This document shows, piece after piece, positions 3,684-9,491 of a stretch of DNA of 64,000 nucleotides (within the stretch, counting starts at the first letter, position 1; every line of letters begins with the position of its first letter). The stretch spans positions 1,603-65,602 of the forward strand of contig CANBES010000006.1 in the NCBI GenBank assembly GCA_947367845.1. The letters run 5' to 3'. Origin of the DNA: an uncultured Clostridium sp. Lineage in GTDB: Bacteria; Bacillota; Clostridia; TANB77; CAG-508. A model generated the notes under the pieces. It had not been told where the DNA came from. It saw nothing but the letters and a program-made list of their open reading frames with translations, and made no database searches. The position numbers and the translations under genes are program-made.

Positions 3684-4403
3684 ATGCAGAAAGTCCTTAT
3701 TGCTAATCCTAATGTTGAGCAAAGAATAAGGCTTTGTCAACAGCTTGCAAATGATAAAAGGTTAGAAGTAATAGAAACAGCTGATGGAAAAACTGCTTTA
3801 GAAAAATATCTTGATATTAAACCTAATGTATTAGTTTTAGATTCTTGCCTAAAAGATATAAATTGTATTGAAATAATTGATAGATTATCTACAAATATTG
3901 CAGATAAGAAAAATAACAACATTATATTAACAGCTCAAAAAGAAGAAAATTTGAACTTGTCTAATGCTGCTAGAATATACAAGGTAATCTATGATGATGA
4001 AAATTTTAATGACTTTTATAGTACAATTAACGAAATGTATCTTTTTGGAGAATATGAAGAATTAACTAACGAGGAACTCGATTTATTATTTTTGACATTA
4101 AAAATTCCTTTAAATTCAAATGGAACTAATTACATAAGAGAAGCTATTTTTGAATGCTACTACTACCCTGACTTACAGAAAAAATTGAAAGATATTTTTA
4201 CTATAATTGGACAAAGACACAACAAGCCTAATTCGGCAATACGATCAAGTTTTAGAACTGCATTAGAACGATTAAATATGTATAGAGATACTATCAACTG
4301 CCCTATTATGCAATATTTTGATATTGAAGAAAATATAACCCCAAAAGATTTTTTAGAAATTGCAGTAATGTATTTACATCTACAAAAAGGAAAGAAGAAA
4401 TAA
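3684..4403 (+). CDS. Spo0A-like orphan regulator (atypical receiver plus Spo0A_C-like DNA-binding domain)
   Basis: The N-terminal receiver fold has D in VLVLDS, but the acidic pocket is replaced (LIANPNVEQ). The C-terminus LKIPLNSNGTNYIREAIFECYYYPDLQKKLKDIFTIIGQRHNKPNSAIRSSFRTALERL parallels the Spo0A effector domain. Confidence 0.65.
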   Translation: MQKVLIANPNVEQRIRLCQQLANDKRLEVIETADGKTALEKYLDIKPNVLVLDSCLKDINCIEIIDRLSTNIADKKNNNIILTAQKEENLNLSNAARIYKVIYDDENFNDFYSTINEMYLFGEYEELTNEELDLLFLTLKIPLNSNGTNYIREAIFECYYYPDLQKKLKDIFTIIGQRHNKPNSAIRSSFRTALERLNMYRDTINCPIMQYFDIEENITPKDFLEIAVMYLHLQKGKKK

Positions 4404-4436
4404 GTTTTGTAAAAAACCTATTCCTTCTTTTTTAGT

Positions 4437-5627
4437 TTATGCGTTTTCTTTTAATTCTTTATACCCTTGCATTATATTGTCTATTTCCATATTGTTTATT
4501 GGCTCTGATACAAATGTATTCAAATTTCTTCCCATTAGATTATATGCTGTTTTCATATATTCATCACTAACATTATCACTTGTAATTATATTGAATATTG
4601 GCACATTATCTTTTAAACTTTCTTTTGATTTCCTCATTATTTCCATACTGTCCATATTGTCTAAATTCATTTTTGCAAAAACCATTTCTGGCTTTGATTC
4701 TATAATTTTATTATATGTTTCTTTTCCGTCTGTTGCTGTGTCTACTAATTCAACATAGTCTAAGCCTTTTATTGTATCTGCTATTTTATTTCTTATTTCC
4801 TCGTTATTATGAGCAATTAGAATTTTTATCTTTTTCATTCTATTCTCCTCTAATTCATACATAAATTCTACTGGATTTTGGTATAGTGCATTTCCTTTTT
4901 TCACATCTACACCATGTTCCGTTTTTATTATATCTCCATTCGCTATTAGCAAAGTATATTTATCTTCCATGTCCTTTTCTTGTCTAAAGTCTGTTTCTCC
5001 TATATTTCCAAAATTTCTAAATACATTTTTAGTTTTCTCAAATTCTGCATCTGTTATTGCAAATTCGTCTTTATTTTTCTCTGCTGTTTCTCGAAGTGGC
5101 ATAAATTTAAAGAATTTCCATTTGCTAATATTATAATTGTTTAGGAATTCTCCTAGCTGCTCCATCTCATTTATGTTTTTCTTGCTAACTACTGTATTTA
5201 TATTGACTTTTAAACTTTTTCCTTTAACATAGTCTAATATAGTTTTAACTTCTTCAAAATGATTTTTGCCTCTTCCTAATTCTTCATTAGTATCATCATT
5301 TATCGTATCTAATGACAATGTCAAAGAATCTAAATAATCTAAAATCTCTCTCATATTTTCATTTTGTGCTAATACCATTCCATTTGTTATTAGCTTGTTT
5401 TTTATACCATTTTCTTGTGATATTTTCAATAGTTCTTTTAAATTTGGATATAGTAGTGCTTCTCCCCCTGTCCAAGTAATGTTGTTTACCCCATCTTTAA
5501 TCAAATTATTTAATATCTCTTTATTTTCTTCATAAGTAAGATCGTTAATACCTAAAAATCTGTGGCAATATTTACAATTTTGATTACATTTTGTTGTAAT
5601 ATTCCAACAAACTCTCTTTTTTTGCAT
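4437..5627 (-). CDS. Viperin-like radical SAM enzyme fused to a C-terminal degenerate receiver domain
   Basis: CNQNCKYC (CX3CX2C) lies near the N-terminus. GGEALLY, LGRGKNHFEEV, KVNINTVVSKKNINE, SKWKFFKFMP and MEDKYTLLIANGDII parallel viperin motifs (GRG..KNH, KINSVINRFN, RWKVFQ, MKDSYLILDEYM). The C-terminal ~120 aa have a REC fold in which DD, D and K are replaced (IAHNNEE, FAKMNLDNMD, VSEP). Start ATG 5627. Confidence 0.7.
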   Translation of the reverse strand: MQKKRVCWNITTKCNQNCKYCHRFLGINDLTYEENKEILNNLIKDGVNNITWTGGEALLYPNLKELLKISQENGIKNKLITNGMVLAQNENMREILDYLDSLTLSLDTINDDTNEELGRGKNHFEEVKTILDYVKGKSLKVNINTVVSKKNINEMEQLGEFLNNYNISKWKFFKFMPLRETAEKNKDEFAITDAEFEKTKNVFRNFGNIGETDFRQEKDMEDKYTLLIANGDIIKTEHGVDVKKGNALYQNPVEFMYELEENRMKKIKILIAHNNEEIRNKIADTIKGLDYVELVDTATDGKETYNKIIESKPEMVFAKMNLDNMDSMEIMRKSKESLKDNVPIFNIITSDNVSDEYMKTAYNLMGRNLNTFVSEPINNMEIDNIMQGYKELKENA

Positions 5628-5731
5628 TTTTAACATCTCTCTTTCTTTGAAATTGATACACAATTATTATATCTTGTAAGAATTTTCCTGTCTATTCTCA
5701 AATATTTAATCAGTATTAAATATTTTTTAAT

Positions 5732-5766
5732 ACAAAAAAAGAATACCCTTTGTTTTAAGGATATTC
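5732..5766 (-). terminator. Rho-independent terminator after lysR
   Basis: Minus strand reads GAATATCCTT-aaaaca-AAGGGTATTC followed by TTTTTTTGT. Confidence 0.55.
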
Positions 5767-5790
5767 TGCCTATTTGCTTATATTCATTTA

Positions 5791-6669
5791 TTACTTATTT
5801 TTTAAGTATTTTTTTATAAATTTCTTATCTACTTGTGTTAGCATATCTTTTATATACACTAAATTTATACTCAATTCTGGCAATTCTATTGGCAATTCAA
5901 CTTCGTATAATTCTCCATTCTCTAATTGTTTCTTGACAGCTTCTTTCATTACATAAGCTATTCCTAGTCCATTCATTACTGCTTCTACTCTTATTTCTGT
6001 TGTATCACATTTCATATTAGGTTTAATTTTTACTTTGTGTTCTTTTAGAATCTTGAATAGATTTTTAGTAGAAATTGTATTGTCAAAATTTAATATATAT
6101 CGTAAATCTTCTAATTCTTTTACATTTTCAATTTTCAATGGCTCTTTTGCAACAAATATATTGTTTACTTTTTTTAATTCTTCAATTACAAACTCATCTG
6201 TTTCTGTTGGTATAACATCTGTTATTACAAAACCAAGTTTGTGATTTTTTAACATCTCAAACATTTCACTTGGATTTGCACCACAAGTTAACTCAATATT
6301 TAAGTTTGGAAAATCATTTTTGGCTTTTTTGATATATTCCATTAAGTAATAATTAGTCAAGTGAGATTGACACCCTAAATTTATAGTACCATTAGCTAAA
6401 TCATTTTTTTCTTTTATTACTTTTTCGGCAAAATCAAAGGAAGAAATACTTTTATTAACCATTTCAAATAATTCTTTTCCCTTTTCTGTTAGCTTTACTC
6501 CATTTTTTTCTCTATAAAATAGTTTCACATCTAATTGATTTTCTAAATTGCTTATCTGTGTACTAATATTAGCTGGAGTCTGATCTAATTTATTTCCTGC
6601 ATCTGCATAGCTTTTAGAACTTGCAACTACACAAAATATCTTATACAAATTATAATTTACATTAGACAT
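5791..6669 (-). CDS. LysR-family transcriptional regulator
   Basis: N-terminal wHTH YKIFCVVASSKSYADAGNKLDQTPANISTQISNLENQLDVKLFYR plus a substrate-binding-type C-terminus. Start ATG 6669 with SD GAGAGGTG. Confidence 0.85.
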   Translation of the reverse strand: MSNVNYNLYKIFCVVASSKSYADAGNKLDQTPANISTQISNLENQLDVKLFYREKNGVKLTEKGKELFEMVNKSISSFDFAEKVIKEKNDLANGTINLGCQSHLTNYYLMEYIKKAKNDFPNLNIELTCGANPSEMFEMLKNHKLGFVITDVIPTETDEFVIEELKKVNNIFVAKEPLKIENVKELEDLRYILNFDNTISTKNLFKILKEHKVKIKPNMKCDTTEIRVEAVMNGLGIAYVMKEAVKKQLENGELYEVELPIELPELSINLVYIKDMLTQVDKKFIKKYLKNK

Positions 6670-6756
6670 AGTAGCACCTCTCAATCGCTATTATTATATC
6701 ATATTATGTAAATAAAGTAAAGAGTTTTGCCCTATTTCTAGGCAAAACTCCATGTA

Positions 6757-7836
6757 TTATTCGTTATTTTGTTTTGAATATAATAAATTTGCTTTTCTAA
6801 TATCAAACTTTGTTCCGATTTTTAGGTTAAGTGTTTTTACAAATTCTATTAGCTGCTCTATATTTTGTTCTGCATTTTCTACTTTCTTTGCTTCTAGCTC
6901 TATAAATATTCCTAAATCTTTAACATCTTGAATATATGCTATAAACTCATCATTTTCGTACATATAGTTTTTATCAATCATATTTAAAAATCTTGTATAA
7001 CCTAATATATTCAAATGTTTTTCTGCTTCTTCTATGCTCATAACTTTTAATACAGACTTTTCTGTACTTATCTCAAATCCATTGCTGTTATGATTTCTTC
7101 TTTTACAAACTATCTTTTTGTCATCTTCATTAACATATCTAATAATTAGTGTGTCTGTAATTCTTCCATTTTTAGGTGCAAATTCATTAGTTTTATCATT
7201 TTTCATATATATATCATCTAATGTAAATTCTTCTATGTATTTGAATCCTTTATCTTCTAAAACTTTAACAATAGTTGATATTTCTTCAAAGACTTCACAA
7301 GTTATTTCTACATCTTTTATAAACTTTGTTTCTCTTACTGCATCTCCAACATATTCTTTTAATTTTTGTTCTAGTAACTCAAAATCACATGAAATGCTAA
7401 TAAAAAATGGGATTTTTATATGTACTACATTTTTGTATATTTTCTTTGCTTTTGAATATATCACATTTTTATTATCATTTATAAAATTGCTTTCTGCTTG
7501 TAAGAGATCTCTATACTTGTCCCCTCTACTATTAAAATCTAATAATTTTATTGCTGTTTCTGGAACTGGTAGCATTTCAGAGAATCTTATAATAGATACA
7601 TTTTTTCCTTTTCTATCTTCTACTCTTATAAAACTAGGATTATCTTTGTACTTATCATAACCTACTTTGTATGAATATAAAGGTGCAAAATATAAATAAT
7701 TTTCTACCCTTAATACAATTCCTACATAAGGTCTTTTTTGCTCTTTATTCCAACTAACATGACTATCAAATTTGCTCAAATAGTCTATGTAATCTTCATT
7801 TACTGTATAAAATTTTAGTGTTTCATTTTCTCCCAT
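6757..7836 (-). CDS. ToxN/AbiQ-family type III toxin fused to a C-terminal CYTH (CyaB-like) domain
   Basis: N-terminus LKFYTVNEDYIDYLSKFDSHVSWNKEQKRPYVGIVLRVENYLYFAPLYSYK..IIRFSEMLPVP fits the ToxN/AbiQ pattern. C-terminus DVEITCEV..DDIYMKN..LIIRYV..IVCKRR..EISTEK..IDKNYMYENDEFIAYIQDVKDLGIFIELEA follows the CYTH strand pattern. The true start is ATG 7836 (SD AAGGAG). The ORF-track N-terminal extension reads into the RNA repeats. Confidence 0.75.
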   Translation of the reverse strand: MGENETLKFYTVNEDYIDYLSKFDSHVSWNKEQKRPYVGIVLRVENYLYFAPLYSYKVGYDKYKDNPSFIRVEDRKGKNVSIIRFSEMLPVPETAIKLLDFNSRGDKYRDLLQAESNFINDNKNVIYSKAKKIYKNVVHIKIPFFISISCDFELLEQKLKEYVGDAVRETKFIKDVEITCEVFEEISTIVKVLEDKGFKYIEEFTLDDIYMKNDKTNEFAPKNGRITDTLIIRYVNEDDKKIVCKRRNHNSNGFEISTEKSVLKVMSIEEAEKHLNILGYTRFLNMIDKNYMYENDEFIAYIQDVKDLGIFIELEAKKVENAEQNIEQLIEFVKTLNLKIGTKFDIRKANLLYSKQNNE

Positions 7837-7848
7837 TTTTGCTCCTTT

Positions 7849-7881
7849 ACAAACAAAACAGGATATATTACTATACCCTGT
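7849..7881 (-). terminator. Hairpin plus U-run between the RNA repeats and the toxin start
   Basis: Minus strand reads ACAGGGTATA-gtaa-TATATCCTGT followed by TTTGTTTGT. It sits where the toxI-toxN attenuating terminator sits. Confidence 0.5.
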
Positions 7882-7890
7882 TTGTATTTT

Positions 7891-8000
7891 AAATCTCCCT
7901 ACTTGAGGCAAGGGTTTTCCTAATGTATAACTCCCTACTTAAGGCAAGGGTTTTCCTAATGTAAATCTCCCCACTTTCGGCAGGGGTTTTTCCGATTAGT
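7891..8000 (-). ncRNA. ToxI-like antitoxin RNA: three tandem ~36-nt repeats
   Basis: Fwd units are 7891-7926 aaatctccctacttgaggcaagggttttcctaatgt, 7927-7962 ataactccctacttaaggcaagggttttcctaatgt, and 7963-8000 (38 nt, diverged). They are contiguous with no spacers and lie directly upstream of the toxN-like gene. Confidence 0.7.
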
Positions 8001-8029
8001 AATCATACGATTACTCTTTTAGTATATTC

Positions 8030-8058
8030 ATTATACACTATTTTTATAACATTGTCAA
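8030..8058 (-). promoter_or_regulatory. Consensus sigma-A promoter driving the repeat-toxin transcript
   Basis: Minus strand reads TTGACA, 17 nt, TATAAT, about 30 nt upstream of the first repeat. Confidence 0.6.
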
Positions 8059-8071
8059 ACAAATTTTTACA

Positions 8072-8449
8072 CTAATTTCTTTTTTCCTTTATTTTATTCA
8101 AATTAGGAAATGTAGCAACAACAATATCTTTTAAGATTTCTAATTCTTCTTCATCACACTTATCAATGATATTTTTCAATATTTCTTTATTGGTGTATTC
8201 TTTATTATTACTCATTCTTTCTCCATATAATAAATAATCAGAAGATTCTTTTAATTTTGAACATATTTGATGCAATGTATGTATGCTACAACTCTTGTCG
8301 CCTTTTTCTAAACTCAAAAGATAATTTTCAGTTCTATCTATCATTTCAGATGCTTTTTCTCTTGTTAATCCTATACTTTCCCTCGCATTTTTTGTTCTTT
8401 CTCCAAAGCCCTTCCAGTCTGTATATTCCTTTTTATCTGTTCTGCTCAT
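8072..8449 (-). CDS. XRE-family HTH protein
   Basis: FGERTKNARESIGLTREKASEMIDRTENYLLSLEKGDKSCSIHTLHQICSKLKESSDYLLYGE is a Cro/C1-type HTH. Confidence 0.7.
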   Translation of the reverse strand: MSRTDKKEYTDWKGFGERTKNARESIGLTREKASEMIDRTENYLLSLEKGDKSCSIHTLHQICSKLKESSDYLLYGERMSNNKEYTNKEILKNIIDKCDEEELEILKDIVVATFPNLNKIKEKRN

Positions 8450-8601
8450 TATTTCGCCCCCATACCAACAATAATTTTTATAATTTCTGTTAGTATTATC
8501 TCATTTTAGGCAAAATAATATTAGAAACCAATAATAATTTATATTATTATTATTAGTCATTTTATAAGCAAATAAAAATACGATTTTAAATCGCTTTGAG
8601 T

Positions 8602-9206: not shown

Positions 9207-9491
9207 ATGAGCAATAATAGAAATCCATATAATGGGCTAAAAGGCAGATTAAATGTTACTGGCGAAAATATAAATCGTATTAGAGTACAGCAAAATTTAT
9301 CTGCACAAGCATTATCTGATAAACTAATTATGATTGGTTTAGATATTCATAGGCAAGCTATTTACGATATTGAATCTGGAAAAAGAACTGTAGCTGATTA
9401 TGAACTTTGTGCAATAGCAGAAATGTTAGATACAACTTCTGATGCACTACTAAAAGATTTTTCTAAATATGTAAAAAAAGAAAAAAATTAA
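9207..9491 (+). CDS. XRE-family HTH protein
   Basis: IRVQQNLSAQALSDKLIMIGLDIHRQAIYDIESGKRTVADYELCAIAEMLDTTSDALL. Confidence 0.75.
   Translation: MSNNRNPYNGLKGRLNVTGENINRIRVQQNLSAQALSDKLIMIGLDIHRQAIYDIESGKRTVADYELCAIAEMLDTTSDALLKDFSKYVKKEKN

Follow-up and report, generated by a model that had tools for sequence, protein, structure and literature searches.

A ToxIN-type locus of an uncultured Clostridium whose ToxN toxin is joined in frame to a divergent CYTH-fold domain

The prevailing view of type III toxin-antitoxin systems is that their trigger is purely passive, namely, decay of the labile RNA antitoxin once transcription stops. The closest described relatives of the locus considered here are ToxIN, with a 36-nt repeat in 5.5 copies followed by a terminator, and AbiQ, with a 35-nt repeat in 2.8 copies followed by a terminator (PMC7781912). 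In a 64,000-nt stretch of contig CANBES010000006.1 (positions 1,603 to 65,602, forward strand) from the assembly of an uncultured Clostridium sp. (GCA_947367845.1), hereafter the window, a minus-strand locus has promoter, tandem repeats, terminator, and toxin gene in the same order as these two systems (PMC7781912), and its identity as a type III toxin-antitoxin locus is well supported. Its toxin is an unusual form of this known kind, a ToxN RNase joined in frame to a CYTH-fold protein. Unlike the toxins of ToxIN and AbiQ, and in place of a single domain of ~160 to 195 amino acids (aa), it has 359 aa in two domains, the extra one being a CYTH fold of ~185 aa. We consider it probable that the locus is a ToxIN-type system and that the CYTH-like domain is a functional accessory of the toxin, binding a metal-phosphate ligand. 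All positions given below are those of the window.

A preliminary description of the window had recognized a ToxIN/AbiQ-type locus with the order promoter, repeats, terminator, and toxin, and every one of these elements was recovered (Table 1). The predicted layout is that of type III systems, with a single promoter 5′ of the repeats and a terminator before the toxin gene. The promoter (TTGACA at 8058-8053 and TATAAT at 8035-8030) is the sole perfect match within the region scanned, and comparison of upstream sequences showed it to be nearly base-for-base identical in relatives despite their different repeat families. The antitoxin transcript begins with a hairpin that is kept at the same position in all relatives (among them L009, L016, and L020 to L023), with sequences that differ between repeat families (GAGCAATC..GGTTGCT, GAAAATAT..ATATTTTC, and GAAGTA..TACTTC), and may act as a 5′-end stabilizer. 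The hairpin and U-run previously seen before the toxin gene correspond to a stem followed on its 3′ side by the tail TGTTTGTAAA, and this hairpin is stable in minimum free energy and centroid structures alike. The ribosome-binding site, start codon, and 359-aa open reading frame (ORF) stand as first read.

The N-terminal half is a ToxN/AbiQ domain, as had been proposed for the first ~170 aa. Pfam ToxN_toxin (PF13958) matches over the full model (positions 1 to 159 of 159; E = 9e-43; 146.6 bits against a cut-off of 25), the PADLOC AbiQ model matches at 3e-45, and the ToxN/AbiQ chains 4ATO, 4GLK, 7D8O, and 2XD0 of the PDB match at 3e-21 to 6e-16, so that the toxin domain is homologous to those of Bacillus thuringiensis ToxIN (4ATO; E = 3e-21) and Lactococcus lactis AbiQ/antiQ (4GLK; 3e-18). 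The segment YFAPLYSYK aligns with YFVPLTSR of B. thuringiensis ToxN and YFIPLLSYK of AbiQ. Unfused members of the same ToxN clade are 163 to 170 aa long and end three residues past ...KEY. In the fused alleles, the linker varies in sequence and in length through in-frame indels, and the frame is always kept.

Table 1. Features of the locus, with positions in the window
Feature	Positions	Strand	Basis
SigA/sigma-70-type promoter, TTGACA-17-TATAAT	8030..8058	minus	12/12 consensus match; predicted from sequence
5′ leader hairpin, 7 bp, loop GUAU	7998..8015	minus	RNA fold; between transcription start and repeats
ToxI-like antitoxin RNA array, 2.8 tandem 36-nt units	7890..7993	minus	Tandem Repeats Finder and unit covariation
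Intrinsic terminator between repeats and toxin gene	7846..7883	minus	12-bp stem 7883-7856, 4-nt loop, U-rich tail
Shine-Dalgarno GGAG	7842..7845	minus	5 nt 5′ of ATG 7836; sequence
Fused toxin ORF, complete, 359 aa plus stop	6757..7836	minus	Start ATG 7836
ToxN/AbiQ endoribonuclease domain, aa 7-162	7351..7818	minus	Pfam, PADLOC, PDB, and fold matches
Linker, aa 163-174, VGDAVRETKFIK	7315..7350	minus	Low model confidence
Divergent CYTH/triphosphate-tunnel-fold domain, aa 175-359	6760..7314	minus	cyaB sub-threshold match, model, Foldseek, PDB profile
Second intrinsic terminator, 3′ of fused gene	6721..6751	minus	Ahead of LysR-family gene (6684-5791)

Tandem Repeats Finder reported a period of 36, 2.8 copies, and 86% matches at 7890-7990; by eye, the units run from 7993 to 7957, from 7956 to 7921, and, partially, from 7920 to ~7890. 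The chance expectation in the window for a 36-nt unit with up to three mismatches is 0.00. The tandem 36-nt array that had been placed at 7891-8000 in three copies is thus real, but it has 2.8 copies starting at ~7993, and the earlier interval was slightly too long because 8000-7994 belongs to the leader hairpin. Each unit combines an A-rich junction, GGAAAAC, with a 4- to 5-bp hairpin capped by the loop RCCNNAAG. As in ToxIN and AbiQ, the repeats are tandem, 34 to 36 nt long, and present in 2.8 to 2.9 copies with A-rich unit junctions.

Fused loci related to that of the window carry three repeat families at the same position (36 nt, 34 to 35 nt, and 33 to 35 nt; ~3 copies each). The 8-nt loop RCCNNAAG was constant in 27 of 27 distinct units from 21 loci, and the stems that close it vary (CCCC/GGGG, CCCT/AGGG, CTCC/GGAG, GCTTA/TAAGC, GTCAA/TTGAC, TCCAA/TTGGA, and TTTCAA/TTGAAA). 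In an alignment of 16 units, 85% of cells were paired and four of the five pairs showed compensatory changes, counts slightly lowered by MAFFT having displaced two units by one column. The covariation score of the stem was 0.673, compared with 0.249 in shuffles (0 of 500) and at most 0.29 in slid controls, so the antitoxin RNA unit is structured. Unlike those of ToxIN and AbiQ, the repeats match no Rfam family (E ≤ 1 over 6500-8500). The antitoxin RNA is nevertheless related to the Firmicute ToxI type, since the same stem and the loop GCCATAAG recur in a ToxI array (35 nt × 10) on a plasmid of Bacillus mycoides. That array (L057, 200-548; plasmid p15) contains at least 10 copies of the 35-nt unit and may extend beyond the stretch scanned. 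B. thuringiensis ToxI has 2.9 copies, far fewer than the at least 10 on p15.

The C-terminal half is a divergent member of the CYTH superfamily. A CYTH pattern had been read in the last ~185 aa, and fold, PDB profile, and transitive Pfam matches bear this out, although Pfam CYTH (PF01928) itself gave no match even at E ≤ 10, either to the whole protein or to the C-terminal half alone. Homology was therefore established by way of structure, PDB profiles, and transitive matches. The NCBIfam cyaB model (TIGR00318) scored 34 to 36 bits against the C-terminal half (E = 6e-9; cut-off, 57.95). An AlphaFold2 model built with 33 homologues was confident in both domains (predicted local distance difference test score [pLDDT] of 85 to 98 for residues 175-359 and <50 for residues 155-173; predicted template modeling score [pTM] of 0.55). 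When this model was compared with the PDB by Foldseek, the top match was SaTTM of Sulfolobus acidocaldarius (7NSD; E = 2e-11; target template modeling [TM] score, 0.83); next came PH1819, Pfu-838710, and a class IV cyclase of Yersinia, and many more CYTH structures were among the matches, with ToxN/AbiQ structures ranking later for the N-terminal half. A viral structure library likewise returned CYTH proteins. The predicted structure has the eight-stranded beta-barrel tunnel fold of SaTTM (PDB 7NS8 to 7NSF) and PH1819 (2EEN), and profiles of the C-terminal domain match both proteins by sequence at ~1e-7. A profile search of 1.84 billion representatives also reached P0094, P0200, and P0236, each of which passes the Pfam CYTH cut-off by itself.

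Conserved residues of the C-terminal domain are E177, T179, D208, Y210, R233, K245, R247, E313, E315, K317, and K348. The SaTTM alignment agrees with the first reading of the motifs, in which DVEIT replaced ExExK and an Arg, CKRR, and the acidic strand FIELEA were kept. The segment D175-V-E177-I-T179 aligns with E-R-E-I-K of SaTTM (E5, E7, and K9), so that the lysine of the ExExK hallmark is replaced by a threonine. Neither the fused clade nor its close standalone relatives show any variation at this threonine, whereas distant relatives have Cys or Leu. Across the wider family, this position reads xEIT[VC], and the first acidic position is variable (D, N, or E). An alternative mapping of ExExK onto E177, T179, and E181 was rejected, as the SaTTM profile alignment puts D175, E177, and T179 on E, E, and K.

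Other parts of the SaTTM tunnel are retained. E313-L-E315 aligns with E135-I-E137 and is a nearly invariant ExE metal-binding motif in the family, D208-I-Y210 corresponds to the DxY motif, and CKRR preserves a basic residue at the lysine of SaTTM TYK; IIRY, set against LRLR of SaTTM, keeps one arginine (R233) of RxR. In SaTTM, metal 1 is bound by E7 and E135 and metal 2 by E5, E7, and E137 (PMC8233210). Since E177 (on strand 1), E313, and E315 correspond to E7, E135, and E137, the first metal site is intact and the second is partial. The domain thus resembles SaTTM in these glutamates, DxY, and several basic tunnel residues (PMC8233210) and differs from it in having DVEIT for ExExK, a single RxR arginine, no direct Pfam CYTH match, and a fusion to an RNase.

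How often the fusion occurs, a question raised with the preliminary description, was gauged in a search of 5.8 billion proteins, which found ~40 clusters of 352- to 372-aa proteins with ToxN-CYTH architecture (49 to 99% identity), one of them comprising 128 members at 99% identity. The species-representative genome collection contained ~20 fused loci, all in Clostridia assembled from gut metagenomes of various hosts, human, mouse, and rabbit among them. In the genome BRZ_BD bin46, there are two fused loci that differ in ToxN subtype. Viral contigs of IMG/VR yielded no relative of the fused protein. ToxN homologues were present in 210 plasmid and 4 phage records; none of these matches covered ≥80% of the fused protein, and the plasmid and phage matches listed all end by residue ~191 and do not include the CYTH-like domain. 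As far as seen, the fused form is restricted to uncultured gut Clostridia. The preliminary description had found the architecture seemingly undescribed, and in the literature collection that we searched, neither a connection of ToxN or AbiQ to CYTH nor multidomain ToxN proteins came up, nor did anything relevant on CYTH in antiphage defense or on ToxN fusions. At NCBI, MCI8273317.1, a fused protein from the P0027 cluster with 66% identity to that of the window, is named only “ToxN/AbiQ family toxin.”

Both halves of the fused protein are under purifying selection. Between fused alleles, the ratio of nonsynonymous to synonymous substitution rates (dN/dS) was 0.11 to 0.34 in the C-terminal half. 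In the ToxN half, it was 0.11 to 0.24 in six comparisons within one ToxN subtype and 0.33 to 0.60 in six comparisons between subtypes, for which substitutions are near saturation. The few broken copies (L026, split into ORFs of 130 and 222 aa, and L022/P0037, truncated within the C-terminal domain) are as expected for any gene family.

Relatives of the C-terminal half are found almost entirely as genes of their own. A profile search (E ≤ 1e-3) yielded a CYTH-like family of 797 clusters at 50% identity, and nearly all of the best 150 matches listed were standalone proteins of ~185 to 200 aa, with the fused form as one representative among them. Standalone proteins of Clostridia and Bacilli (e.g., P0088 to P0092; ~190 to 200 aa) share the xEIT[VC] signature of the C-terminal half, to which the nearest of them are 53 to 70% identical; one standalone relative, MCI8310568.1, is a “hypothetical protein” at NCBI. 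At L027, L028, L034, and L036 to L042, the standalone gene lies directly upstream of genes for a LysR regulator, a radical-SAM/receiver fusion, and a Spo0A_C-type response regulator, with 4 nt between the CYTH-like and LysR genes in L028. In the window, the same three genes come after the fused gene. More distant Bacilli have radical-SAM and LysR homologues within 2.5 kb of the CYTH-like gene. Because standalone relatives precede the same genes, we infer that the CYTH-like gene is the resident of the locus and that a ToxIN cassette was joined to its 5′ end. Unlike the standalone genes, which have their own start codon, the window domain would be expressed only as the C terminus of ToxN. The standalone state rests on the full-context loci L028 and L038, and some of the proteins counted as standalone probably are not. 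P0052 was rejected as a standalone case; it comes from a 960-nt contig, starts with MQEKTKIY, which matches the ToxN C terminus, and is probably a 5′-truncated fused gene.

The gene cluster to which the CYTH-like gene belongs is itself conserved from Clostridia to Bacilli, being present at L045, L046, and L048 in addition to the standalone loci named above. As seen in the window (3684-6684), it follows the CYTH-like gene, standalone or ToxN-fused, with a LysR-family regulator and a 408-aa radical-SAM protein with a C-terminal receiver domain, and it also has a divergent response regulator with a Spo0A_C-type output domain. The locus thereby points to a large, unstudied CYTH subfamily, with xEIT for ExExK, that is syntenic with a LysR/radical-SAM-receiver cluster in Firmicutes.

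Comparison of alleles located the edges of the cassette. Per 100-nt block, DNA identity of the window to L009 and L013 was 83 to 100% in the downstream flank (and in the upstream flank of L013), and over the C-terminal domain (~7350-6760) it was 97 to 98% (L009) and 88 to 97% (L013). From ~8050 to ~7350, a segment holding leader, repeats, terminator, and ToxN, identity to both fell to 55 to 65%, changing abruptly at the promoter and again where the two domains join. L019, compared likewise, was 83 to 100% identical per block in the flanks and 55 to 65% in the leader, repeat, and ToxN segment. At the protein level, identities of the alleles P0022, P0025, and P0027 to P0030 are 46 to 48% in ToxN and 85 to 92% in the C-terminal domain, and those of P0017 to P0020 are 79 to 84% in ToxN and 62 to 67% in the C-terminal domain. 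From these comparisons, RNA and toxin thus appear to be exchanged together, by allelic replacement at a fixed chromosomal site, with the promoter on one side and the downstream domain on the other being conserved. The locus offers a clear natural case of cognate RNA-protein pairs swapped as units. In its fixed chromosomal position, it differs from ToxIN and AbiQ, being not plasmid-borne.

Members of the same ToxN clade are mostly unfused and canonical. At L054 (3238-3851), the same repeats precede an unfused 165-aa ToxN gene whose stop codon lies 3 nt before an obg-like GTPase ORF, as judged from sequence. At L050 (78-1349), a ToxN of this clade, with the same repeat family, continues in frame into CN_hydrolase, exactly at its start Met, and at L051 (143-1102), the same repeats and ToxN are fused to an ATP-grasp/RimK-like gene, which then appears split; both contigs end inside the repeat array. 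A PAS fusion (P0040) was not relied on, since its 1,058-nt contig could be a chimeric assembly. Such cassettes seem to sit directly at the 5′ ends of host genes, without a downstream terminator of their own.

A cassette of this sort might have produced the window gene by accident. If a ToxIN cassette landed directly ahead of the resident CYTH-like gene and its stop codon was then lost, the two domains would be independent and just tolerated as neighbors, in that ToxN would work like any type III toxin and the CYTH-like domain would keep a resident job tied to the LysR/radical-SAM cluster; the locus would then be an ordinary ToxIN system with a passenger domain. We regard such an incidental fusion as unlikely but credible. 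Consistent with it are the standalone genes at the same position upstream of LysR and radical-SAM genes in related genomes, the cassette boundaries at promoter and domain junction, and the same cassette unfused just ahead of the obg-like ORF or fused to CN_hydrolase and ATP-grasp genes. The flexibility of the linker fits as well, as does the evident tendency of the cassette to read on into genes 3′ of it. However, the frame is kept down to 49 to 53% identity, across two ToxN subtypes and three repeat families, and the sequence contains no internal start codon or ribosome-binding site for separate expression of the C-terminal domain. The fused gene and its repeats also occur in at least two other contexts without the LysR and radical-SAM genes, where the CYTH part travels with the toxin. 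Judged from ORF translations, these are L023, where the fused gene lies between a short-chain-dehydrogenase-like ORF and an Mfd-resembling ORF, and L035, where it has a large multipass membrane-protein ORF and two small ORFs on one side and an ORF with an XRE-like helix-turn-helix N terminus on the other. Purifying selection on the C-terminal domain while fused would be equally expected under an incidental fusion.

Since the fused gene is found with its repeats in these other contexts, it seems also to move as a unit. A functional role of the accessory domain is favored because the frame is maintained, both halves are under purifying selection, a separate start is absent, and the fused gene has been transferred to new sites. 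Several observations weigh against such a role. All carriers are metagenome-assembled genomes. The model gives no confident relative orientation of the two domains (pTM of 0.55; linker pLDDT of <50). The ToxN clade is mostly unfused and occasionally joined to CN_hydrolase, ATP-grasp, or PAS, and its fusion to unrelated enzymes suggests that read-through fusions can arise without a dedicated function. The C-terminal domain acts as chromosomal backbone, with 97 to 98% DNA identity to L009 where ToxN has ~57 to 65%. Loss of the ExExK lysine could also mean that the domain is catalytically dead.

The C-terminal domain had been described earlier as CyaB-like, with the suggestion that a second messenger might be generated on infection. 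It is very improbable that it is an active class IV nucleotidyl cyclase. The weak cyaB match and the presence of class IV cyclase structures among the fold matches would fit such an activity, as would the replacement of the first RxR arginine by Ile as in cyclases, seen in one of two alignments (read with PMC8233210); because the two alignments disagree on the RxR counterpart of R233, no conclusion on cyclase versus phosphatase is drawn from that residue. Class IV cyclases are marked by HF four residues before ExExK and by Ala in place of the second ExE glutamate (PMC8233210). In the window protein, positions 169-170 are E-T rather than H-F, E315 is retained where cyclases strictly have Ala, the ExExK lysine has given way to an invariant Thr, the cyaB score stays below its cut-off, and the best structural matches are triphosphatases (SaTTM). 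Neither the CyaB-like label nor the second messenger is therefore supported. An artefact, in which sequencing or assembly error merged two genes (the missing stop codon allowed for in the preliminary description) or a pseudogene is decaying, as the split and truncated relatives might suggest, is excluded by the many independent intact copies, with the same architecture in ~40 clusters from independent assemblies, including the 128-member cluster, and in ~20 species-level genomes and with dN/dS well below 1 in both halves.

For the ToxIN-type system with a functional accessory domain that we prefer, the following course of events can be proposed. One strong promoter would give a short RNA made of the 5′ hairpin and 2.8 repeats of 36 nt; the terminator would end most transcripts, and a minority would read through into the toxin gene. 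By analogy with ToxIN and AbiQ, the ToxN domain would cut the repeat transcript at its A-rich junctions into 36-nt units, whose RCCNNAAG-loop hairpins would bind the toxin and keep it inactive. A shutdown of transcription, such as that caused by phage infection, would let the labile RNA decay and free ToxN to cleave cellular and phage RNA, with growth arrest and an aborted infection as the presumed outcome. Through its flexible linker of ~12 aa, the toxin runs on into a CYTH-fold domain taken from a resident, normally standalone gene. This domain keeps E177, E313, E315, DxY, and part of the basic patch (R233 and K245/R247) and is without the ExExK lysine and all cyclase signatures; our best guess is that it still binds metal-(poly)phosphate or a nucleotide and serves as an accessory regulatory or oligomerizing module rather than as a cyclase.

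Nucleotide gating of the RNase activity, as suggested in the preliminary description, is possible. A more far-reaching proposal, which we offer as doubtful speculation, is that the CYTH-like domain senses a ligand (e.g., nucleoside triphosphate, polyphosphate, alarmone, or 5′-triphosphate RNA) and controls ToxN release or activity and that the ToxI-ToxN cassette is mobile, can lose its stop codon, and takes on host genes to serve as regulatory modules at its C-terminal end. If true, a toxin that permanently bears a fold for binding phosphate or nucleotides would give the first indication that a type III system also responds to a ligand, as a second input, and the CYTH fold would join the domains recruited to phage defense.

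Just upstream of the toxin-antitoxin promoter, the window has two XRE-family helix-turn-helix genes (8072-8449, minus strand, and 9207-9491, plus strand) and a gene for a 184-aa protein without a family match. These three genes are 86 to 99% conserved in L013. In L005 and L015, other genes take their place, so the flank upstream of the promoter is also variable.

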